Shown here in pieces: positions 786 to 63,491 of a stretch of DNA of 63,491 nt. Positions within the stretch are counted from its first letter, which is position 1, and the number at the start of each line of letters is the position of its first letter. Both the position numbers and the translations under genes were made by a program. The stretch comes from Nanobdellota archaeon (GTDB taxonomy: Archaea > Nanobdellota > Nanobdellia > Pacearchaeales > GW2011-AR1), in assembly GCA_018817405.1 (NCBI GenBank), contig JAHITZ010000032.1:1-63491 (forward strand). The letters run 5' to 3'. Under the pieces are notes generated by a model. That model was not told where the DNA came from and ran no database searches. It was given only the letters and a program-made list of their open reading frames with translations.

Positions 786-1850
786 ATGGAGAAAAAAGAA
801 GTACAAAAGAAAATACTCGAGAAGGCAAAGAACAACAATGCAACAGAAGAAGAATTCGTATCGATTCTAAGGTCTGTTGCTCCTGGGACACATCTCAGAT
901 CATCACTCGACGGAACCCTCAGAACAGGCAAAGGGGCACTAATCATAGTCGAAAATGAAAACACTTTTGACATTTTTGACGGAGGTTTCTGGTTAAACAC
1001 TCGTTTCACTCCACAAAAACTCGTAGAGCTATCGAAGATGGATGGTGCTATAATTTTAAGCAAAGACATGAAGCGAATCAGCTACGCAAACGTCTTATTA
1101 ACACCAAGTAGCAAAATATCAACAAACGAAACAGGAACAAGACACAAAGCTGCAGAGCGCTCCGCTAAGCAAGCAGGCACATTAACAATTGCAATATCAG
1201 AAAGAAGAAACGAAATCACAATCTACTACAAAAATCTCAAATACCCTCTAGTTCCAACCGGAGACTTGCTAAGAAAAGCAAACGAAAACATCCAACTTCT
1301 AGAAAAACAAAGAGCCATATTCGATAAACAAGTTGAAAAATTAGACACTCTCGAATTGTTAGGTTCTTCAAATCTGAGACAAACAATCAATGTAATCCAA
1401 AAAGGAAGGATAATAGTGAAGTTAGCAGATGATTTAAGCAGATATTTAATTGAATTAGGAAAAGAAGGCACTCTCCTAAGAATGCGTCTCAAGGAAATCA
1501 CCATAGGGGTAGAAAAAGAAACAGACCTCGTTGTCAAGGATTATACTCAACTAGATTTGAAGAGATCAAAAAATCTTTTACACAATTTGTCATACGATTC
1601 TGTCTTGGATGAAGAATCAATCGCGAAGATCTTGGGTTACGAAGGAACAATTACAACACAAGAAATAAAAGGTTGGAGAATCCTCTCCCGAACCTGCTTG
1701 TCTGATTCAGAGATAGCTTCATTAATAAAGGAAAAGGCAACCCTAGTTGAAGTGTTAGATTTAAAACAAAACACTTTTGTAAACCTGTTTGGTGAAGAAA
1801 AAGCCCGAACACTAAAAGGAGAATTAGATAAGATTTCTACCAGCGTTTAA
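786..1850 (+). CDS. disA: DisA-like diadenylate cyclase (DNA integrity scanning protein)
   Basis: 354 aa; DAC-domain motifs GALIIV, DGAIIL, GTRHKAAER, then a long helical linker and C-terminal domain, as in DisA. Confidence 0.8.
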   Translation: MEKKEVQKKILEKAKNNNATEEEFVSILRSVAPGTHLRSSLDGTLRTGKGALIIVENENTFDIFDGGFWLNTRFTPQKLVELSKMDGAIILSKDMKRISYANVLLTPSSKISTNETGTRHKAAERSAKQAGTLTIAISERRNEITIYYKNLKYPLVPTGDLLRKANENIQLLEKQRAIFDKQVEKLDTLELLGSSNLRQTINVIQKGRIIVKLADDLSRYLIELGKEGTLLRMRLKEITIGVEKETDLVVKDYTQLDLKRSKNLLHNLSYDSVLDEESIAKILGYEGTITTQEIKGWRILSRTCLSDSEIASLIKEKATLVEVLDLKQNTFVNLFGEEKARTLKGELDKISTSV

Positions 1851-1859
1851 ATATCAATA

Positions 1860-2306
1860 TTATTCAACAACCCAAGTCTGAATAACAATTACCACGATAG
1901 CAATCACTGCAATAATTCCCTTAACTGCTAAAAAGCCAGATGCTTCAATTCTTACAGCAGGAATAGAGAACACGCCTGTTAAAACAGCGAGAACACCGAT
2001 TATAACAGTGATTAATTTTGTAAAGTTTTTTGGTGTAAGACCCTCATGTTTCATCCTCCCAAGTTTGGTAATTTCCCCTTCAACAACAAAACCAAGCCCA
2101 ATAATTATCATCAACATAGCCTCTACATAAAAACTCATATCAAAGTTAAACAAAGTAGCACTGATAATTCCCAAAAACCCAACAATGCTTACTAACGCCA
2201 GAGCTATGACAAACTTGTGCGACGCTGTTGTCATTTTCCTCTCATTTTTTTCTCGCGTCAATTTCCTTACAATTTTATTTTCTTTGCTATATCTTGCACC
2301 AGCCAT
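1860..2306 (-). CDS. Small multi-pass membrane protein (true start possibly the internal Met at 2234)
   Basis: Four hydrophobic segments; the first 24 codons overlap the upstream gene. Confidence 0.5.
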   Translation of the reverse strand: MAGARYSKENKIVRKLTREKNERKMTTASHKFVIALALVSIVGFLGIISATLFNFDMSFYVEAMLMIIIGLGFVVEGEITKLGRMKHEGLTPKNFTKLITVIIGVLAVLTGVFSIPAVRIEASGFLAVKGIIAVIAIVVIVIQTWVVE

Positions 2307-2608
2307 GTTTCTTTCTTTTCTCCAGACAGAGCATTAATCCACGCAATTAGCCACAAAACAAACCAAAACACCCACAAAAGAGGCTCAATAATATTCCCAA
2401 ATAACGGAGTCGATGAAACAAACGCTATAATAATTTGCCCAATAAAAAGCACAAGACCCTGCTTCGCGTAGTACATCACATACTCGTCATCCCGCTTTAC
2501 AATCAGCGCAATAATAAAACCAATTATCGTCAGGAACGTAGCAAGCCACGCAAACGTCTTGCTCTCACTCTTCTTACTTGATGTTTTCTTCACACTCTTT
2601 TTCGGCAT
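2267..2608 (-). CDS. DUF4870-like membrane protein
   Basis: 113 aa; basic N-terminus, TM helices, YYAKQGL motif typical of DUF4870. Confidence 0.5.
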   Translation of the reverse strand: MPKKSVKKTSSKKSESKTFAWLATFLTIIGFIIALIVKRDDEYVMYYAKQGLVLFIGQIIIAFVSSTPLFGNIIEPLLWVFWFVLWLIAWINALSGEKKETWLVQDIAKKIKL

Positions 2609-2676
2609 GTCTAATTATAAGAAAGGGTGTTTAAAAAAGTTTGGGGATGCTCCCCGTTAGTTAACTCATAGATCTA

Positions 2677-2922
2677 CTAATAAACATTCTTCCTAAAACC
2701 TATCCTCACCACAACAATTTTATTTGCAGAAACAATAACATCAACAATTGCTCTGTAATCTCCTATTCTTAACCGCCATAACTTTTGCCCCTGAAGTCTT
2801 TTGAGAAACCTAAATGGGTTGTCCCTAATCGAATAAATCTTTCTCAAAACTATCTCTGCATCTTTTTTTGGCAATTTCTTAAGGGAATTTTCAGCATTTT
2901 TTTCAATTTGGATCGAATACAT
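2677..2922 (-). CDS. relE: RelE/ParE-family toxin
   Basis: 81 aa; LPKK...NP....K.L.G...WRLRIGDYRAI..I......V..IG.RKNVY pattern. Confidence 0.8.
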   Translation of the reverse strand: MYSIQIEKNAENSLKKLPKKDAEIVLRKIYSIRDNPFRFLKRLQGQKLWRLRIGDYRAIVDVIVSANKIVVVRIGFRKNVY

Positions 2923-2923
2923 T

Positions 2924-3160
2924 CTAAGTTAAAGAAACGCCAAGTTCTTTTGCTACTTGTTCAATTGGCTTTACCTTTCCCCTTTTAACATTCTCTAAGG
3001 CAATCTTAATATCTTCAACCTCCTCCTCGCTTAAACTTTCTTCCTCAATATTGTCCACTAAATTATTGAGTAGTTCATCATAGGATTGTCTGTCAAAATT
3101 CTTCAACGCCTTTAGACGCCCAAGAGTGTTTGTATTTATTTGGATGGTTGTCTTTTCCAT
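2924..3160 (-). CDS. Cognate antitoxin (family unassigned)
   Basis: 78 aa acidic protein directly upstream of relE with a stop-1nt-ATG junction. Confidence 0.6.
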   Translation of the reverse strand: MEKTTIQINTNTLGRLKALKNFDRQSYDELLNNLVDNIEEESLSEEEVEDIKIALENVKRGKVKPIEQVAKELGVSLT

Positions 3161-3381
3161 GTTATATGATAACTATAATTAGTATATAATTGTTTCGTTT
3201 ATGCCCTGGACGCGAAAACAATAATACATTCGCGTTTGCTATCGTAGTTCTTGCTAATGCTCCCGCCGAGCAAGTGACCATCTTGGCGTCCTCAAGGGAT
3301 GTCTGTTTATTTTAACATAAACATTCCTTTCAGACTGTTTTGATTTAAAAATATTGTCGAGGTTGAGTATATCGATAAAAA

Positions 3382-4065
3382 CTAAGCCCCAACTATTCTA
3401 TTAACCGCCTCTGGAACTTCCCTGAGCATTTGTTCAACCATGTCCAAGTATGCATTCTTACCCTTACCTAAGACTTTCTTTATTTCTGATTTAGAATCAC
3501 CAGTAGCTAATTGGCTCAAAACAGAAATTGTGGGATCATATTCTATTCCAGAATACATCTTCGAGACCCTTGCATAATTTTCTTTGTCGACTGGTAAAAC
3601 AGCAATAACATCAAATCTTGGAACTGTTTGGTCTTTTCCATCTTTTACAGAACCTTTAATCCCATATTTTTCTATACATTCGGCAATATACCTTTTTCCA
3701 TCTGCCATAAATGCTGCCTCAGCCTTACTAAAAAGATGATTAAATAACCCATGCATACCTCCAGTTATTTGTGCTATTTCTAACGCTGCTTTATCAGATT
3801 GATTGTAGACACCACCCCTCTTAAATGCTAATCGATACAATTCATGCCTTTCATCAGATGAATATTCCTCATCAAACATTGCATTAGCCATTGTCCCACT
3901 AGAAATAATCCCATATTCTCCTTCTGCGCCGATTTCAACTAAATGGTTTCTTCCAATTAGTTCTACAAGTGGAGATCTACAATTATTAGTAGTGCATACA
4001 GCTTCAATTAGTTTTCTTGCCATTTCATCTGTCCTCCCAAATAGCTTTTTGTCTGTAAAACTCAA
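3382..4065 (-). CDS. Hypothetical protein, 227 aa, no family recognised
   Basis: Long ORF with non-host-like composition; its start overlaps the upstream ORF by 41 nt. Confidence 0.5.
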   Translation of the reverse strand: MSFTDKKLFGRTDEMARKLIEAVCTTNNCRSPLVELIGRNHLVEIGAEGEYGIISSGTMANAMFDEEYSSDERHELYRLAFKRGGVYNQSDKAALEIAQITGGMHGLFNHLFSKAEAAFMADGKRYIAECIEKYGIKGSVKDGKDQTVPRFDVIAVLPVDKENYARVSKMYSGIEYDPTISVLSQLATGDSKSEIKKVLGKGKNAYLDMVEQMLREVPEAVNRIVGA

Positions 4066-4372
4066 CTACTTCATCATCGCTAGGAGTTCCTGCAGAGATT
4101 ACTGGACTTCTAATACAAACGCTGTAACCCCAAGTAGTGTCTGGATGACCATCATTATCTGTGTCTTTTACATCTCTTGCAAGAGTGTAGGGAGTATTGC
4201 TCTCAATTCCTTCTCTCCCAACGATTTGTGCACTGTCAAAATTATCATAATTTCTCAAAGCTCCTCCGATTAATCCTGGAGCTAAAAAGACCCCCACTGT
4301 TGCTAGGGCTGTTAATAAGCCATTTCTTATTGTTTTCATTTTTTCTTTTTCCTCCTTACACTTTGTTTTCAT
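4025..4372 (-). CDS. Small secreted or membrane-anchored protein
   Basis: 115 aa; N-terminal hydrophobic segment LLTALATVGVFLAPGLIGG after a basic stretch. Confidence 0.45.
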   Translation of the reverse strand: MKTKCKEEKEKMKTIRNGLLTALATVGVFLAPGLIGGALRNYDNFDSAQIVGREGIESNTPYTLARDVKDTDNDGHPDTTWGYSVCIRSPVISAGTPSDDEVVEFYRQKAIWEDR

Positions 4373-5736: not shown

Positions 5737-6675
5737 ATGTATATCGAAAAAAGAAAGTATTATGGCAAGACAAAGTATTGGCTTTCTCACTCATTCAGGG
5801 AAGGAGGCAAGATACATAAAATAAGAAAATTACTGGGCGTAGATTTAACTAAGGATAAATTAGAAGAAAGAAAAGAAAGGGCTGAGAACCTCATCTTAGA
5901 AGAAATTAATAAGTACAAAATAATAAAAGATCCCCTCCATGATAAGATATCCAAAGAAGAAATTGAATTTATTAAAAGGTTGCAAGCAGAAGCAAATCTT
6001 AAAGTAATTCACCTATCTGAAAAGCAGTGGAAAACTTTCTCTGAAATTTTTAGTTATAATACTAATGCGATAGAAGGCAGCGAATTAAGTAAAAAAGAAA
6101 CCAAGGAAGTCATAGAAAAAGGAGTTTGGCCAGTTGAAAAGTCTAAAGAAGATATCGCAGAAGCGTTAGGTGTGAACGAAGCCATAAAACTTATTAGAAA
6201 AACAAAAGAACATATTTCTTTAGACTTAATTAAGCAAATCCATTATATTGTTTTCAAAAACTCTAAAGATTTTGCAGGAGAATTGAGAAAGTTAGGACAA
6301 GAAGTAGTTGTTAGAACTGGAACAGGATTTATTGTTCACGAAGGCGCGCCTTCCTCGAGAGTTATTACTTTGCTCAATGAACTAATCAAATGGTATAATA
6401 AACACAAATCAGAATATCCTGGAATTCTGTTGGCTTCTGTCATACACAATCAGTTTGAAAATATACACCCCTTTGCAGATGGCAATGGAAGAGCCGGCAG
6501 AATTTTATTGAATAATATTTTATTAAAAAATAATCTTCCACCAGTCAATATAGATATAAAAAACCAAGCTGAATATTATCAGACTTTGCAATCTTATGAA
6601 AAAGATGGAAACATAAGGCCAACTATAGAACTCATATTAAAAGAGTACAAAAGTCTAAGTAAAATAATAAAATAA
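5737..6675 (+). CDS. fic: Fic-family protein (AMPylase-type), with N-terminal inhibitory motif
   Basis: HPFADGNGRAGR active-site motif; TNAIEG matches the (S/T)xxxE(G/N) inhibitory helix. Confidence 0.85.
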   Translation: MYIEKRKYYGKTKYWLSHSFREGGKIHKIRKLLGVDLTKDKLEERKERAENLILEEINKYKIIKDPLHDKISKEEIEFIKRLQAEANLKVIHLSEKQWKTFSEIFSYNTNAIEGSELSKKETKEVIEKGVWPVEKSKEDIAEALGVNEAIKLIRKTKEHISLDLIKQIHYIVFKNSKDFAGELRKLGQEVVVRTGTGFIVHEGAPSSRVITLLNELIKWYNKHKSEYPGILLASVIHNQFENIHPFADGNGRAGRILLNNILLKNNLPPVNIDIKNQAEYYQTLQSYEKDGNIRPTIELILKEYKSLSKIIK

Positions 6676-6687
6676 TAGAATTCTACG

Positions 6688-6725
6688 TGTAGACAATATT
6701 GTAGACAAGATTAATTTGTAGACAA
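6688..6725 (+). promoter_or_regulatory. Second iteron triplet TGTAGACAA x3 downstream of fic
   Basis: 9-mers at 6688, 6700, 6717 (spacing 12 and 17 nt); about 80 percent identical by eye to 5685-5723 over about 40 nt. Confidence 0.6.
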
Positions 6726-6782
6726 AGGCGCCCCACCGAAATGCCAAAATGTTATAATTCTCCTGTGGAACCTTCTGCTCTA

Positions 6783-6950
6783 TGCTCCTACCGGGATTCG
6801 AACCCGGGCCTTCGCCGTTCTCCATGCCTTTCAATCTGAAAGACACTTAAATAAAAGTGCCTGCCTCAAGCGAGACTGAAGGTATTAGATCACCTCAGCA
6901 ACCTCCGGCAATCGAGAGGGCGATATCCTTAACCGCTAGACAATAGGAGC
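6783..6950 (-). tRNA. tRNA-Glu (anticodon CUC inferred) with an intron of about 95 nt (about 6818-6912)
   Basis: Acceptor GCTCCTA/TAGGAGC; D arm GTCT..GGAT; anticodon stem TCGCC/GGCGA pairs only if about 95 nt after position 37 are removed; T arm CCGGG-TTCGAAT-CCCGG. Confidence 0.75.
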
Positions 6951-6986
6951 TTATTTCATAAGGTAATGTTCACTATAAAAGATTTG

Positions 6987-7322
6987 CTAATCTCCAGAAA
7001 GGGTTCTTTCTAAATTCTTAAAACCTTCTCCTAAATAATAAGCATCTTCATTAGACAAACCAATTATCAGCAGAGACATTCTGTGGTCATCGAAGTTTAA
7101 ATGTCTACAAGCTTTCCAATGACAATAAGCCTCCAGCGGCCTCATTCCAGCATGTAATTTAAATTCTCTCTGTTGCTCTTCTCTTGTCTGAGAGCTATCA
7201 ACCCATCCTAAACTTTCTGCATAATCTATTGCTTCATCTGAAACATAGGGTTCTTCCGCTAACATCCCCTCAAGCATGCTATCCATTATCAAAGAAGGCG
7301 CATCAAATTCACCACATTCCAT
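6987..7322 (-). CDS. Orphan ORF with atypical composition, acidic, 111 aa
   Basis: ORF next to tRNA-Glu; shares LERTLS-D and CxnCR motifs with ORF 30173-30412. Confidence 0.4.
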   Translation of the reverse strand: MECGEFDAPSLIMDSMLEGMLAEEPYVSDEAIDYAESLGWVDSSQTREEQQREFKLHAGMRPLEAYCHWKACRHLNFDDHRMSLLIIGLSNEDAYYLGEGFKNLERTLSGD

Positions 7323-22141: not shown

Positions 22142-22239
22142 TGGTCCCGACGGGATTTGAACCCGCGACACCTAGGTTTCTTTTACTTTTAGTTCAATAC
22201 TAAAAGCCTAGTGCTCTAACCAGGCTGAGCTACGGAACC
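22142..22239 (-). tRNA. tRNA-Lys (UUU) with an intron of about 22 nt
   Basis: GGTTCCG/CGGGACC acceptor; GCTC-AGCCTGGTTA-GAGC D arm; anticodon stem CTAGG/CCTAG restored after removing about 22 nt; T loop TTCAAAT. Confidence 0.8.
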
Positions 22240-23890: not shown

Positions 23891-23953
23891 GAGAAAAAAA
23901 GGAAGAAGGATTATTTATGTGTTTTGGACAGTAACAATACCGAATAAAATGTT

Positions 23954-24112
23954 TAACGGTATCGGGCTATACGAAGTCGGCGTAAGCCGATTTGGGTGGA
24001 GAAACCTGCAAGGTTTCGGAACCGTTAAATTCCTGTTATGCTCTCCCGACGACTGGAAGGAGGAGAGCGCAGCGGGGCAAAATCCAAAGGATTTTGAGTT
24101 CAGAATTCGGGC
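23954..24112 (+). ncRNA. GC-rich, structured-RNA-like segment (left copy), identity unknown
   Basis: Clearly GC-richer than its surroundings; stems AACGGT/ACCGTT, TCGGC-GTAA-GCCGA (GNRA loop), GAAACC/GGTTTC, CTCTCC/GGAGAG; 43 nt identical to 24513-24555. Confidence 0.35.
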
Positions 24113-24195
24113 GTCATCAATATTAACTTCAGAGTAGTAAAAGAACCGAAAGATTTATGAATATGCTCTTTATTCTAATCCTAAGGAGATAAAAA

Positions 24196-24462
24196 ATGTC
24201 AGAAAGAAGAGGATTAGGATTTTTTGAAACTGTCTGTGCAGTAGTAGTTGGAGCTTCATTAGCGACAATTCCAGACTACGTCAGACAAGGAAACATAGAG
24301 AATAAAGTTGACCAATTACTTCAAAGACCCGCAATTGAATTAAGAACAGAAAATGTTATTGGTGGAAATGCACCTGAGAAATTCTATGAAATTGCTGGGA
24401 AAAGAGTATATTTAGAAATAGATGGTCAACCAGTAGATAACTATGTTCAAAATAGAGAATAA
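24196..24462 (+). CDS. Small protein with a type IV pilin-like N-terminus
   Basis: AGGAG 8 nt upstream of the ATG; MSERRG-LGFFETVCAVVVGASLA gives basic residues, Gly, Glu at +5 and then a hydrophobic helix. Confidence 0.4.
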   Translation: MSERRGLGFFETVCAVVVGASLATIPDYVRQGNIENKVDQLLQRPAIELRTENVIGGNAPEKFYEIAGKRVYLEIDGQPVDNYVQNRE

Positions 24463-24491
24463 ATCTTTCGGTTTCTATAATTTTACATTTA

Positions 24492-24645
24492 GCCCGAATT
24501 CTGAATTAGACATAACGGTATCGGGCTATACGAAGTCGGCGTAAGCCGATTTGGGCGAACGGGGTGAGCCGTATAGCCCGTGTTATATGACCGAGCCGAA
24601 GGCGGGGCAAGGAGCGAAGCGACGCAGAGTTCCGAACCCCACCAT
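24492..24645 (+). ncRNA. GC-rich, structured-RNA-like segment (right copy), identity unknown
   Basis: 11-bp stem CGGGCTATACG/CGTATAGCCCG enclosing a TCGGC-GTAA-GCCGA hairpin; shares CGGGGCAA and GAGCG.AGCG strings with the left segment. Confidence 0.35.
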
Positions 24646-24647
24646 AT

Positions 24648-25244
24648 TTATTTTGTCTGAGTGCCACCTATAACTTCATTAGTGTTTTTATCCACATAAA
24701 CTACCAGATGACTACCTTCAGCAGGACCAGGATAATAAAATTTGACAATCCAACATGAATGTTTTGATGGCGATTTTATTGGCTCCTTGTCCCAGTTCTC
24801 CCAATAATGATTTGCTTCACATTCGTCTTCAACAACTTCCACTTTTTTCACCATAGAGAAAAAGTCAACATTGGGAAACGCATTATGAACATATTTTTGT
24901 AAATGCTCTTTGGCAATACTTTCTACTAAAGGAGTAGATGATTCAATACAAGCATTATTCACACAACTGCACCCTTCTGGAATCAAACACTTCCAACGTG
25001 GCTCTCGAAAACAATAACTTTTCAGATTATTGTACTTAGATACTCCTTCTAAATTCACACACTGTCCGCATCTTACTACCTTACAATCGCTATCTGAAGT
25101 GCAATATTTATAGTTCTTTAATTCTTCATTTGCCAATGTATGAAATTTATTTTCGCAGTATATGAATTGCCAGTACGCAATTACGAAAACAATCAGTATC
25201 AAAATTCCAATTCCAATTAAGATTTTTTTATTGTTTTTCATCAT
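24648..25244 (-). CDS. Membrane-anchored Cys-rich extracellular protein
   Basis: 198 aa; N-terminal TM, Cys-rich middle region, PepSY-like C-terminal pattern VVYVDKNTNEVIGG. Confidence 0.55.
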   Translation of the reverse strand: MMKNNKKILIGIGILILIVFVIAYWQFIYCENKFHTLANEELKNYKYCTSDSDCKVVRCGQCVNLEGVSKYNNLKSYCFREPRWKCLIPEGCSCVNNACIESSTPLVESIAKEHLQKYVHNAFPNVDFFSMVKKVEVVEDECEANHYWENWDKEPIKSPSKHSCWIVKFYYPGPAEGSHLVVYVDKNTNEVIGGTQTK

Positions 25245-25501
25245 AATTTATTATTGTTTTATTTTATTAAAATGTTTTGTTTTTTCAAAGGGGTTCGGAA
25301 TTTCATATAACAAGGTATTATGTCTACTTTCCCCAAACTAAAAAACCATTCCACTTATCGCACCCACTCCTCCTCTCGCTCACCACCAAAATTAAAGTTA
25401 CCCATCGCTCAGCAACACCAGCCACCTCTCACTTTGATATTTATCTGCCCCCTACAACCATTCCCCACACCCCCTACCTTCTCGCTCACCACCACCCCAC
25501 A

Positions 25502-28394: not shown

Positions 28395-28838
28395 TTATTT
28401 GGTAATCAACTCCTTTATCTCTTTTTTAAAGTCATCTAATTCTGTAAAATCCCTGTATACAGACGCAAATCTAATGTAAGAAACCTTGTCTATTTTTTTC
28501 AATTCAGAAACAAGCATATCACCAATAGCAGTGGATTTTATCTCTTTCCCTTTTTTTCTCAGCCTATCTTCAACTTTCGCAAGCATTTTGTTTATTTTCT
28601 CTGAACTCACAGGCCGTTTTTCACACGCCTTCATAACCCCTTTTTTTAATTTTTCATAATCAAAGCTCTCTCTTCTGCCGTCTTTTTTTATCACCCTCAG
28701 GTCAACTCTATTAACTATTTCTTGTGTATTAAATCGCTTGGCGCACTTAAGGCACTCTCGCCTCCTTTTTGACAATCCTTCAATGTCTCTTTTGTCTATG
28801 ACTTTCGTTTCACTATGAAGGCAATATGGGCAGAGCAT
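28395..28838 (-). CDS. nrdR: Transcriptional repressor NrdR (Zn ribbon plus ATP-cone)
   Basis: Start at MLCPYC; CPYC..C..C Zn ribbon, then ATP-cone; TAA-A-ATG junction with nrdJ. Confidence 0.85.
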   Translation of the reverse strand: MLCPYCLHSETKVIDKRDIEGLSKRRRECLKCAKRFNTQEIVNRVDLRVIKKDGRRESFDYEKLKKGVMKACEKRPVSSEKINKMLAKVEDRLRKKGKEIKSTAIGDMLVSELKKIDKVSYIRFASVYRDFTELDDFKKEIKELITK

Positions 28839-29073
28839 TGTTCGTTTAACACCACCAGATGTAGTGGTTTTCCTCTTTTTTAACACAATTCCTTGTGTTT
28901 ACGCGTGTTTTTAGTTTCAGCCTTATTTAAATACTTCTATCCTCTTTTTTTTATCGTCGGTAAAATATCCAAAACCAAAAGTCTTACTTTCCGAGTGATA
29001 AAAGGAGGAGTTCGGGTAATCTGATTTCTCAAATAGGGTAAACTTTTATAAACACTCTTTCATTAATCACCCC

Positions 29074-30541: not shown

Positions 30542-30722
30542 TTAATACATCAAGATTTGCATTTTACGTAAACTCCCCACTTTAGTTCGTGAGAAAGTAA
30601 ATGCAAATCTTGACTGTGCTCAAGACCCTAAGAATTCCTTACAATAGAATTCTTGGCTGCGCTCAAGAATCTTCGATTCTTGACGACCTGAGGCACGCGA
30701 TTTTAGTCCGCGGGTTCTTGAC
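30542..30722 (+). repeat. Multi-hairpin repeat family A, complete copy 2
   Basis: Five consecutive hairpins: CAAGATTTGCATTT..AAATGCAAATCTTG, CTTGA..TCAAG, AAGAATTC..GAATTCTT, TCAAGAATC-TTC-GATTCTTGA, CGCG..CGCG. Confidence 0.8.
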
Positions 30723-50240: not shown

Positions 50241-50480
50241 ATGCGTGAGCGAGAAGAACCGACATTAAGGGAAAGCTTAAGAGTTATTGGAAGGCAATGC
50301 GTGCTTAAACCTCTGCAATATGTATATACTACCGGAGTGGCAGTACTTTATGTTGGTGCCAGATTACTTCTTTGTGATGACCGCGACCCTGCCAGACCAA
50401 TTGATGATTTTATGACTGTCTTTGAGGCCGGAAGACCCAATTGTCAAGATTTGCATTTACTTTCTCACGAACTAAAGTAG
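50241..50480 (+). CDS. Orphan ORF whose last 12 codons are supplied by repeat A copy 3 (likely truncated gene)
   Basis: The C-terminal CQDLHLLSHELK-stop is encoded within the repeat 50443-50515. Confidence 0.3.
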   Translation: MREREEPTLRESLRVIGRQCVLKPLQYVYTTGVAVLYVGARLLLCDDRDPARPIDDFMTVFEAGRPNCQDLHLLSHELK

Positions 50481-50515
50481 GGAGTTTACGCAAAATGCAA
50501 ATCTTGATGTATTAA
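50443..50515 (-). repeat. Repeat family A, copy 3: first hairpin module only, inverted orientation
   Basis: The reverse complement matches 30542-30614 with 2 mismatches in 73 nt. Confidence 0.85.
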
Positions 50516-61762: not shown

Positions 61763-62605
61763 CTATTCACTTTTCCCACTATCTTCCTTAAACAAACCAT
61801 CAAATGGATTCGCAACTTTCTTCAACTGTTCAGAAGAGATATGAGTATAAACTTGAGTTGTGTTTAATGATGCGTGGCCCAACATCACCTGAATAAGACG
61901 AATGTCAACACCCTGCTCAAGCAAATGCGTGGCAAAACTATGCCTTAATGTGTGGGGCGTTGTTTTCTTCGTAATGCCTGCGCGCTCTTTAGTTCCTTTA
62001 ATAATTTTTTGTATATTCCTCGTCGTCAGAGGCTTTGTCTTGGAAAAAACATACTCATTTTCCTTTCCTCTTGTATCAAAGTAATCTTTCAGCTCTTCAG
62101 AAAGATTTTCAGACATAACAAATAATCTGTCTTTGTTTCCTTTTCCCCTTCTCACCCATCCTGTTTTTTCGTCTAAATTCAAATCAGAAACCTTCAGATT
62201 AACAAGCTCAGAAACCCTCAAACCAGTAGAATACAATAACGAAACAATCAACCGCGACTTTATGGTGTCAGTAGACTCAATCAAGTTCCTGACTTCGCTC
62301 TTCGTTAAAACTTCTGGAAGTTTTTTTTCTTTCTTCGGCAGTGGAATGCCCTCAAAATCTTTTTTCAAAACTTCTTTAAAGAAAAACTTCAACGAAGCAC
62401 CGGCAAGCATGATTGTGTTCTTGGATTTTGTGTCAAACATCTCAGAAAGATAAGCCTTAACATCTTCCTTGTCTAATTCTTTTTCTTTTTTGTTTGTTTT
62501 TTTTAAAAATTTATTGACGAAAAAAGTATAGTTACGAACGGTCAACGGAGAAAACCCCCGAATTTTCAACTCTGCTTTTAATTTTTCTAATAACTCCATT
62601 AGCAC
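61763..62605 (-). CDS. xerA: Tyrosine recombinase, XerA/XerC/XerD-like
   Basis: 280 aa; GLRVSE, HTLRHSFATHLL, LGHASLNTTQVYTH. Confidence 0.85.
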   Translation of the reverse strand: MLMELLEKLKAELKIRGFSPLTVRNYTFFVNKFLKKTNKKEKELDKEDVKAYLSEMFDTKSKNTIMLAGASLKFFFKEVLKKDFEGIPLPKKEKKLPEVLTKSEVRNLIESTDTIKSRLIVSLLYSTGLRVSELVNLKVSDLNLDEKTGWVRRGKGNKDRLFVMSENLSEELKDYFDTRGKENEYVFSKTKPLTTRNIQKIIKGTKERAGITKKTTPHTLRHSFATHLLEQGVDIRLIQVMLGHASLNTTQVYTHISSEQLKKVANPFDGLFKEDSGKSE

Positions 62606-63015: not shown

Positions 63016-63146
63016 GCGGGAGTTCCAGAGTGGTCAAATGGGCAGGACTTAAGACGTCTGTCGTTCATCAGAGCGATATAAGATAGGATTTCGTAAGAGA
63101 TCCTGTGTGCTTAGTGCCTTCGGAGGTTCGAATCCTCCCTCCCGCA
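63016..63146 (+). tRNA. tRNA-Leu (UAA) with a 46-nt intron (about 63054-63099)
   Basis: Acceptor GCGGGAG/CTCCCGC; anticodon stem CAGGA/TCCTG restored after intron removal; loop CTTAAGA; long variable arm; T loop TTCGAAT. Confidence 0.8.
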
Positions 63147-63297
63147 TTTATGTCTTCTCCGAAGACATATCAATTCGCGGTAGCGAATTGTGCCTACGGC
63201 AAACAAGACGAGCAAAGCGAGTTCTATTGTAGTCTTTTGATGCGTACAACTTTTCTTCTAGAAAAGTCGTACTTCGTGATCCTCCCTCCCGCATTTA
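63147..63297 (+). mobile_element. Hairpin-rich mini-insert of about 130 nt, bounded by a 19-nt duplication of the tRNA-Leu 3' end
   Basis: ATCCTCCCTCCCGCATTTA at 63132-63150 and 63279-63297; interior hairpins ATGTCTTC/GAAGACAT, CAATTCGC/GCGAATTG, ACTTTTC/GAAAAGT. Confidence 0.6.
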
Positions 63298-63491
63298 GGA
63301 TTCGAACAGCGGGAAAGGTTCGAAAAGCAAAGACGCAAGAGCGGCTACTTGTTAAAGTCCCGCAAGAAATCCCGTTGCTTTAGCTGTGGGATGAATTGCG
63401 GCAATCTTTTTCTATTTTTATGAATATAAAAAAATGAGCGAGTCGTCGCTCATTGTGTTTACAAACAGGGTGAGAACTGACTTGTTCTAAA

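Follow-up and report, generated by a model that had tools for sequence, protein, structure and literature searches.

Probable gene cassettes of an integron-like recombination system in a DPANN archaeal chromosome

Two probable cassettes at the ORF88 locus of a Pacearchaeales contig

The window analysed here is a 63,491-nucleotide (nt) stretch of a Nanobdellota archaeon of the order Pacearchaeales (assembly GCA_018817405.1, contig JAHITZ010000032.1, positions 1 to 63,491, forward strand), and the region of interest surrounds an open reading frame (ORF) of 88 amino acids (aa), ORF88, which is enclosed by two nested inverted repeats. These inverted repeats probably mark the divided ends of a mobile gene cassette that is accompanied by a second one at this locus, and the region 23957-25311 would thus consist of two mobile cassettes of an integron-like site-specific recombination system of DPANN archaea (Woesearchaeota, Pacearchaeota and Nanoarchaeota). 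Literature searches returned no description of this cassette architecture, and the system appears to be undescribed and widespread in groundwater DPANN archaea.

The outer inverted repeat (IR1) was a perfect 14-base-pair (bp) pair of TTCAGAATTCGGGC (24099-24112) with GCCCGAATTCTGAA (24492-24505), as a first-pass annotation made from the sequence had reported. The inner inverted repeat (IR2) paired perfectly as well, although over 15 bp rather than the 14 bp first given (24144-24158 with 24459-24473), and its right arm overlapped the end of ORF88 (24196-24462, + strand) so that the TAA stop lay inside 24459-24473. The ORF had its own Shine-Dalgarno site, AGGAG (24184-24188), also as annotated. 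Perfect 14-mer inverted repeats 50-600 nt apart occurred at four loci in the 63-kb window, two of which were IR1 and IR2, while first-order random sequences gave a mean of 0.4 such seeds; the two nested pairs are therefore not a chance occurrence. IR1 is the arm pair of the ORF88 cassette and IR2 is a pair of conserved frame motifs. Three features of the locus had been missed at first, namely a perfect 43-nt direct repeat, a second enclosed gene, and the GC-rich structured units that form two islands flanking ORF88 within the AT-rich archaeal chromosome.

A conserved cassette architecture

Each cassette opened with a GC-rich structured unit of about 200 nt. The consensus unit on the + strand comprised an N5TAAC box, a 1-3-nt spacer, a three-way junction, a T and a GTTAN5 box, a hairpin, a variable hairpin, GAG and an arm. 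The three-way junction was built from an 11-bp helix (P1), AAG, a variable P2 hairpin, (A)ATTTGGG, a P3 hairpin and the P1 3' strand. The core hairpin, with a loop containing GACGACTGAAAGGAGGAGAGCGCAG closed by CCCC(G)/(C)GGGG, was almost invariant across species (24042-24078 in the window; loci L013-L157). A general rule held for dozens of units, in which GAG was directly followed by the arm and, 0.3-3 kb further on, the second arm (arm') was directly followed by TT and N5TAAC. The arms were 10-19 nt long and differed between cassettes, yet were complementary within each. Of 62 cassettes called automatically, 40 ended in nine nucleotides that complemented all five variable positions of their own GTTA box. 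At least 15 covarying box variants followed this pattern, and the mean of the shuffled control was 2.3 of 5. The calls that failed this rule were mostly spurious calls of AT-rich repeats.

The repeats around ORF88 were not specific to this gene, as the identical frame held unrelated cargo elsewhere. The IR1 frame, TTCAGAATTCGGGC and GCCCGAATTCTGAA followed by TT and AGACATAAC, was found in 33 distinct cassettes around unrelated ORFs of 77-172 aa, including one cassette with two genes in 1.3 kb and many ORFs whose N-termini are of the lipoprotein or membrane-helix type. These framed ORFs came from other Woesearchaeota and Pacearchaeota contigs. Both IR2 arms were kept in 25 of the 33. The TAA stop of unrelated cargo ORFs was supplied by the right frame, TAAATCTTTCGG (window 24459-24462; L014, L015, L022, L030, L033 and L037), and the boundary between variable and conserved sequence therefore fell exactly at the stop codon. 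Changes in IR2 were compensated at 5 positions versus 32 mismatched positions, so that the IR2 copies have the appearance of two conserved motifs and not of a stem free to covary. In standard cassettes a B recognition element (BRE)/TATA-like box was located 38 nt 5' of the ATG, and a similar aaagatttata box was present upstream of ORF88 homologs that are ordinary genes in other genomes. The IR2 left arm, AACCGAAAGATTTAT, is thus a putative BRE/TATA-like promoter of the cargo gene and, if so, would lie outside the ORF88 transcript, which argues against the RNA-level control of the gene that had been proposed. Of the initial interpretation, an ORF-bearing cassette set among structured elements with functional repeats conserved in relatives was borne out, whereas an insertion in a structured RNA, an inversion and RNA-level control were not.

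The ORF88 segment had also been considered as an invertible cassette, that is, a phase-variable switch of a pilin gene. Inverted repeats around a small membrane-protein gene are what such a switch would present. In all 33 framed cassettes, however, the cargo had the same orientation with its ATG 84-98 nt from the arm start, none was inverted, and no strand-changing joints were seen in four metagenomes (contigs only). The leader from which a pilin was proposed was not conserved (see below), and the putative promoter lies inside the repeats, so that inversion would leave expression unswitched. We consider such a switch extremely improbable.

A second subfamily had the box GTTATACGC/GCGTATAAC and the arm TTCAAAAAATATTTTTC, and its cargo, placed behind a terminator-like hairpin that is conserved, lay on the opposite strand; across the family as a whole the cargo could sit on either strand.

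The 22-mer at 24057-24078 was found exactly in 26 GTDB species genomes, nearly all of them Woesearchaeota, Pacearchaeota or Nanoarchaeota, and a 20-mer of the first unit was exact in at least 119 JGI metagenome contigs. Neither this 20-mer nor the 31-mer of the core hairpin had a match in IMG/VR, and a viral origin was rejected on this basis. In four metagenomes from groundwater and biofilm, depth over 23937-24118 was 465-1000x versus 6-28x elsewhere in the genome. In the metagenomes the 29-mer at 24488-24516 reached 299-374x, and assembly unitigs broke at 24487/24488 and 24516/24517.

Metagenome contigs of up to 149x joined the left frame to the right frame without an ORF (24158 to 24450/24458), which suggests that cargo-less frames are abundant in other genomes; none was present among the fetched loci. 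Some of the unit-bearing contigs (L025, L035, L038 and L032) came from bins labelled Saccharibacteria, Parcubacteria or Gammaproteobacteria. Such labels reflect either mis-binning or cross-domain spread, and the Pfam matches on neighbouring genes were not diagnostic. Units also flanked apparent housekeeping-type genes, judged by their N-terminal sequences, such as an ORF resembling tyrosyl/tryptophanyl-tRNA synthetase and one for a UvrA-like ABC protein; multi-gene blocks were flanked in the same way (L013 2294-4537; L033, flipped, 6146-7279; L030, flipped, 1372-4268). The segment bounded by units is therefore not always a small accessory cassette.

Layout of the two cassettes

The left junction of the two-cassette array was the N5TAAC box ATGTTTAAC (23948-23956, + strand). 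Units began directly after an N5TAAC box at all loci, the crossover at this junction would be at or next to TAAC, and there was no further cassette left of 23948 within the window. The structured unit of the ORF88 cassette, unit A (23957-24098, + strand; nhmmer match 23954-24122, E 5.5e-38), consisted of the three-way junction to about 24032, the GTTAT box GTTATGCTC (24034-24042), the core hairpin with the conserved 31-mer (24042-24078) and the variable hairpin (24078-24096) followed by AG. The box of unit A had one inserted C relative to the family box GTTATGTCT. The 43-nt direct repeat (copy 1 23954-23996, copy 2 24513-24555, + strand) started at the TAAC box and reached as far as the conserved ATTTGGG junction, its first copy being the 5' half of the unit A three-way junction. 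Because of this copy unit A was chimeric, and its P1 5' strand GGGCTATACG failed to pair with its P1 3' strand CCGTTAAATTCC. Similar chimeras were seen in unit A of L001 and in L017, L114, L149 and L023. They point to gene conversion within the three-way junction or to a second site of exchange there, near ATTTGGG.

The IR1 left arm was preceded by GAG, as in every unit, and was followed by the conserved left frame (24113-24195, + strand) with ATCAATATTAAC, AGTAGTAA, the IR2 left arm and the AGGAG. After ORF88 the conserved right frame (24459-24505, + strand) comprised the IR2 right arm ATAAATCTTTCGGTT, a T-rich stretch and the IR1 right arm, and the cassette ended with TT and AGACATAAC (24506-24516, + strand), which complements the family box; here too the crossover would fall at the end of TAAC. 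The structured unit of the second cassette, unit B (24517-24629, + strand), had a three-way junction and the GTTAT box GTTATATGA (24583-24591); its core was short, with a GCGAAGC mini-hairpin at 24614-24620, and, as in other short units, the conserved loop sequence of the core hairpin was absent. GAG and the arm TTCCGAACCCC (24630-24640, + strand) preceded a cargo gene of 198 aa (24648-25244, - strand) that encodes a Cys-rich protein with an N-terminal membrane helix and no Pfam family. The cassette closed with arm' GGGGTTCGGAA (25290-25300), TT and TCATATAAC (25303-25311), all on the + strand, and these last nine nucleotides were the perfect complement of its own box GTTATATGA. The right half of the occupied target site, AAGGT ATTATGTCT, followed at 25312-25325 (+ strand). 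The sequence at 25303-25325, TCATATAAC-AAGGT-ATTATGTCT, had a dif-like geometry, and 24508-24516 joined to 25312-25325 would likewise form a dif-like empty site, AGACATAAC-AAGGT-ATTATGTCT.

Segment exchange at the TAAC box

The exact ORF88 protein was also encoded on L001, a contig of another assembly that represents a strain-level relative. Its identity to the window was 99.8% in the ribonucleotide reductase gene and 100% from 24006 to 24517. Identity stopped at 24517, where the assembly graphs also branched (24516/24517), and resumed at 25312. Between ACATAAC (24516/24517) and ATATAAC (25311), L001 carried a different unit and a HIT-family gene in place of unit B and the 198-aa gene. Both of the swapped segments were self-consistent. 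That of L001 had the box GTTAAATGC, the end GCATTTAAC and the arms TTGAAAAAGTGCGCC/GGCGCACTTTTTCAA, and that of the window had the box GTTATATGA after the three-way junction, the end TCATATAAC and the arms TTCCGAACCCC/GGGGTTCGGAA. Plain homologous recombination between repeats was rejected as the sole cause of the swap on the grounds that the ends complement the internal box of the swapped segment itself. Such ends would be produced by a circular or folded element that recombines at the TAAC box. The 43-nt repeat was also considered as the attL/attR of a 516-bp integrated element and rejected, as L001 has the same block between non-identical flanks.

Independently of this pair of contigs, near-identical segments in different flanks and ending in (T)AAC were found for L039/L124 (1985 bp, 99.95%), L039/L147 (1132 bp) and L035/L149 (980 bp), and 22 of 38 distinct left breakpoints were located at [TC]AAC versus a background of 5.7%.

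A G-rich, almost C-free tail with repeated GGTGGTGAGCGAGA was present in the window between the ribonucleotide reductase stop and a TAAT box (25327-25501, - strand), and a similar G-rich tail followed the SMC gene in L001 (4690-4755, + strand) just 5' of the L001 unit.

Arrays and a linked tyrosine recombinase

Two to five units were present at 47 loci, and all units were co-oriented at 45 of these. Among 646 neighbouring ORFs, the most recurrent family was a tyrosine recombinase, present at 11 of 146 loci, and in all 11 the gene lay 0.4-2.8 kb past the last unit, at the same end and on the unit strand. No units were found past the recombinase gene in the loci inspected. A short site, N5TAAC-N3-(G)TTAT/TATTA, was located about 100-260 nt 5' of the recombinase gene.

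No transposase family recurred among the same 646 ORFs. Transposition of the IS200/IS605 single-strand type was rejected, as no Y1 transposase recurs by the arrays. The absence of a transposase also bears on whether ORF88 and its repeats could be a miniature transposon (a mobile insertion cassette or miniature inverted-repeat transposable element, MITE) mobilised by a transposase in trans and inserted by chance between copies of an unrelated repeat. Like MITEs, repetitive extragenic palindromic (REP) and bacterial interspersed mosaic element (BIME) repeats and mobile insertion cassettes, the elements are high-copy, structured and intergenic with inverted-repeat ends; the ends here are perfect, the frame is high-copy in metagenomes and, a trait shared with mobile insertion cassettes, the cargo encodes something other than a transposase. 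In contrast to those elements, there were no target-site duplications and no conserved terminal repeats, the position of the gene relative to the unit and TAAC box was fixed, and the linked enzyme was a recombinase rather than a transposase. A single transposase would not accept arms that change from cassette to cassette while remaining complementary, and the mobile segments end at TAAC rather than at the arms. A chance-inserted miniature transposon is therefore very unlikely.

The array-linked recombinase matched Pfam PF00589 and PF13495, and its NCBIfam scores were 193 bits for XerA_Arch and 187 bits for the integron integrase TIGR02249 (cutoff 265 bits), both under cutoff. Its best solved relative was Pyrococcus abyssi XerA (PDB 4A8E, 9.5e-35), with one continuous match. 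The match to IntI4 (2A3V) was split, with IntI residues 179-246 opposite only 177-198 of the query, and the recombinase is therefore without the IntI-specific insertion. This insertion has been reported as essential for integron function (PMC8138268).

The similarity to XerA raises the question of whether the cassettes simply hijack the housekeeping XerA/dif system, in the manner of integrative mobile elements exploiting Xer (IMEX) or Acinetobacter pdif modules, rather than having a dedicated integron-like platform. As in those elements and archaeal XerA/dif, an Xer-family enzyme accompanies modules bounded by inverted sites, and the short sites are dif-like, with inverted arms of about 9-11 nt ending in ATAA / TTAT and a 3-7-nt spacer. 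For comparison, dif has an 11-6-11 layout with cleavage at the spacer ends (PMC8371274). On the other hand, the recombinase was under the XerA_Arch cutoff, arrays of up to five units were found beside its gene, and at most sites a three-way junction of 80-170 nt lay between the arms, which is impossible for a duplex dif; these are mostly long folded sites rather than 28-bp duplexes, and the outer arms are cassette-specific. We assign the hijack a low probability and regard it as a variant of the integron-like explanation rather than a true alternative to it.

The window encoded its own XerA-like tyrosine recombinase (61763-62605, - strand), 37 kb from the cassettes, so that what is seen in the window is only a cluster of two cassettes at a secondary site. 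A type II tRNA gene with an intron of about 46 nt (63016-63146, + strand), missed by ARAGORN and by the whole-window Rfam run, was present together with a second copy of its 3' end about 160 nt off (~63289-63310), both just upstream of this recombinase gene, which may be a remnant of an integrated element.

Folding of the structured units as DNA or RNA

The + strand of 23940-24660 folded far better than shuffled sequences (z = -10) and better than the - strand. P1 was paired at 96.8%, double changes occurred in 9 of 11 P1 pairs and 7 of 8 P3 pairs, and no shuffle reached the observed score. Among 374 P1 cells there were only six G-T and two A-C combinations. The terminal loops of P2 were C-GNA-G triloops in 26 of 70 cases versus two GNNA, CGNAG occurred 88 times on the + strand versus 9 on the - strand, and GCGAAGC/GCGTAGC mini-hairpins were frequent. 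According to work by Hirao and colleagues in the 1990s, DNA reportedly gains exceptional stability from d(GCGAAGC) and GNA triloops, which do not belong to the standard motifs of RNA. In situ, pairing was seen only about half the time in the outer half of the box helix, versus 96.8% for P1, as expected if the crossover falls between the TAAC box and the three-way junction.

These data also address the possibility that the units encode a structured non-coding RNA of a new kind or a cis-regulatory leader, with the long stems acting in RNA through processing, circularisation or translational control. The strand asymmetry, the strong covariation of P1 and P3, the GC-rich islands in an AT-rich genome and the presence of related units in three metatranscriptomes, one contig at 637x, are all compatible with an RNA. 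However, wobble pairs were nearly absent, the loops were C-GNA-G rather than GNRA, no conserved promoter was found 5' of the units, the IR2 left arm itself is the putative cargo promoter and the cargo occurs on either strand. An RNA would leave the TAAC breakpoints, the complementarity of the cassette ends to their own boxes and the recombinase linkage unexplained. Rfam 15 gave nothing better than chance for the window units or the canonical unit L022 at gathering and permissive thresholds, and RNase P, the signal recognition particle RNA, group I/II introns, riboswitches and ribozymes were discarded as candidates for lack of an Rfam match. A split or intron-bearing tRNA was discarded because there is no bulge-helix-bulge geometry at the stem base. 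We regard an RNA as unlikely, and with it the earlier idea of an ORF inserted in a structured RNA. The combination of covariation almost confined to Watson-Crick pairs, C-GNA-G triloops and the link to a recombinase favours folded single-stranded DNA of the + strand over RNA.

The 637x contig came from the RNA library run X25 and covered a related unit from another organism over the equivalent of 24548-24628, from the P1 3' strand to the GTTAT box. Some units may be highly transcribed, or the contig may reflect DNA carry-over.

Proposed mechanism and comparison with integrons

In the mechanism that we propose, a cassette reads on the + strand as three-way junction, GTTATnnnn, conserved hairpin core, GAG, arm, cargo, arm', TT and nnnnATAAC. 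The + strand would fold as single-stranded DNA, with the arm and box helices joining the cassette ends and presenting a dif/attC-like duplex, which an XerA-family tyrosine recombinase would cut at or beside the boundary of ATAA and C. Cassettes would then be exchanged, inserted or excised via a circular form, and new cassettes would gather by the recombinase gene at the short attI-like site, with occasional use of secondary sites such as the one here downstream of the ribonucleotide reductase gene. What the data show is the architecture with its covariation, the breakpoints, the arrays and the recombinase link; the reaction chemistry, a single-stranded substrate, a circular intermediate and a role of the frame as promoter are inferred.

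Several points weigh against this interpretation. No recombination product was observed directly, and neither a circular junction nor an empty site (AGACATAAC joined to AAGGTATTATGTCT) was present in reads, the older runs being represented by contigs only. L001 is metagenome-assembled, and that single comparison could in principle reflect an assembly chimera at the repeats. The model assigns no role to the highly conserved 31-mer core, the chimeric units imply a second exchange point near ATTTGGG that the model does not predict, and unrelated ORFs in an identical promoter/stop frame are not explained by it. Related units were present in metatranscriptome contigs (unstranded), so that transcription of the units is possible. 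The array-linked recombinase, which is without the IntI insertion, could be no more than the housekeeping XerA. That of the window, located by a tRNA gene whose 3' end is duplicated, may be part of a different element.

The cassettes resembled integrons in several respects, including co-oriented arrays of single-gene cassettes beside the gene of a tyrosine recombinase directed away from them, sites that are imperfect palindromes with AAC and GTT boxes, and accessory cargo. The strand-asymmetric folding points to a single-stranded substrate, as for attC bottom strands, and a predicted crossover beside AA/C would make the first bases of a cassette complementary to the box at its other end. At 11 of 11 loci the recombinase gene was beside the array with an attI-type site between them, whereas the window itself shows the array only. 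Integron attC sites are imperfect palindromes of 57-141 nt with R'' (RYYYAAC) and R' (GTTRRRY), a crossover at G/TT and a cassette start that complements its own R''. The DPANN boxes, N5TAAC and GTTAN5, show own-end complementarity and are combined with a three-way junction, short R-L spacers and extra arms. The DPANN sites also differed in their much larger size, 80-170 nt, and in having the 31-mer hairpin, the extra arms around the cargo being specific to each cassette. The recombinase is XerA-sized and without the IntI-specific insertion. Integron cassettes are promoterless and share a common Pc, whereas many of the DPANN cassettes appear to bring their own promoter in the frame. In addition, the DPANN cargo may be on either strand and units also flank housekeeping-type genes. 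A survey of archaeal integrons listed only a few Woesearchaeales genomes (Ghaly et al. 2022; PMC9668308).

On balance we lean, with limited confidence, towards a joint proposal in which DPANN archaea carry an unrecognised and widespread integron analogue with an XerA-like enzyme that has no IntI insertion, large folded single-stranded DNA sites and self-expressed cassettes, and in which these cassettes, mostly for small surface or membrane proteins and accessory enzymes, are shuffled within and between genomes. If true, the integron principle arose independently from Xer, or an ancestral form has been retained, and integron-like biology would be extended to an Xer-type enzyme without the IntI domain, which bears on the origin of integrons from Xer. 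For tyrosine recombinases, folded sites rich in hyper-stable DNA mini-hairpins would be substrates of a new class. The genomes of DPANN archaea are tiny, these archaea are host-dependent, and the ways in which they acquire and diversify surface and accessory genes are poorly understood; cassettes with recombination sites of their own would explain strain-level gene swaps in these lineages. The 31-mer core, the TAAC/GTTA boxes and the complementary arms would provide a signature for mobile genes in archaeal metagenomes, which current integron finders probably miss.

Cargo proteins

ORF88 had been described as pilin-like from an RRG leader with Glu at +5, and it does share a short charged N-terminus, a Gly and a hydrophobic helix with the class III signal peptides of archaeal type IV pilins. 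This reading did not hold. The leader varied across the 11 members of the ORF88 family and was absent from the 10 relatives of ORF88, no Pfam family was matched at E <= 0.01 and no pilin domain was found in Pfam or NCBIfam. The AlphaFold2 (AF2) model was weak (pLDDT 63), with a short helix, a second helix and three strands, and contained no long N-terminal pilin helix. The conserved part of the family was instead a small C-terminal beta domain of about 45 aa (ELKTENVIG..PEKFYEI.GKRVYLEIDGQPV), while the N-terminal membrane helix varied. The relatives were ordinary chromosomal genes without units. Across cassettes the cargo was accessory, including HIT, NUDIX, methylase-like and phosphotransferase-like proteins and small secreted proteins.

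Other features of the window

The chromosome in the window encoded RpoA/B/H, EF-2, ribosomal proteins and a thermosome. A tRNA gene with a 24-nt intron (22142-22239, - strand) was identified by an Rfam match and missed by ARAGORN. The same hairpin stem, TCAAGATTTGCATTT with AAATGCAAATCTTGA, occurred twice with different loops (30550-30613 and 50444-50507), one copy being 5' of the gene for a 758-aa surface protein and the second lying immediately beyond a 2006-aa gene. Bacterial-type regulators were encoded at 786-1850, 5737-6675 and 28395-28886, namely a DisA-like diadenylate cyclase, a Fic protein and an NrdR-like repressor, the gene for the last of which adjoins the reductase gene.

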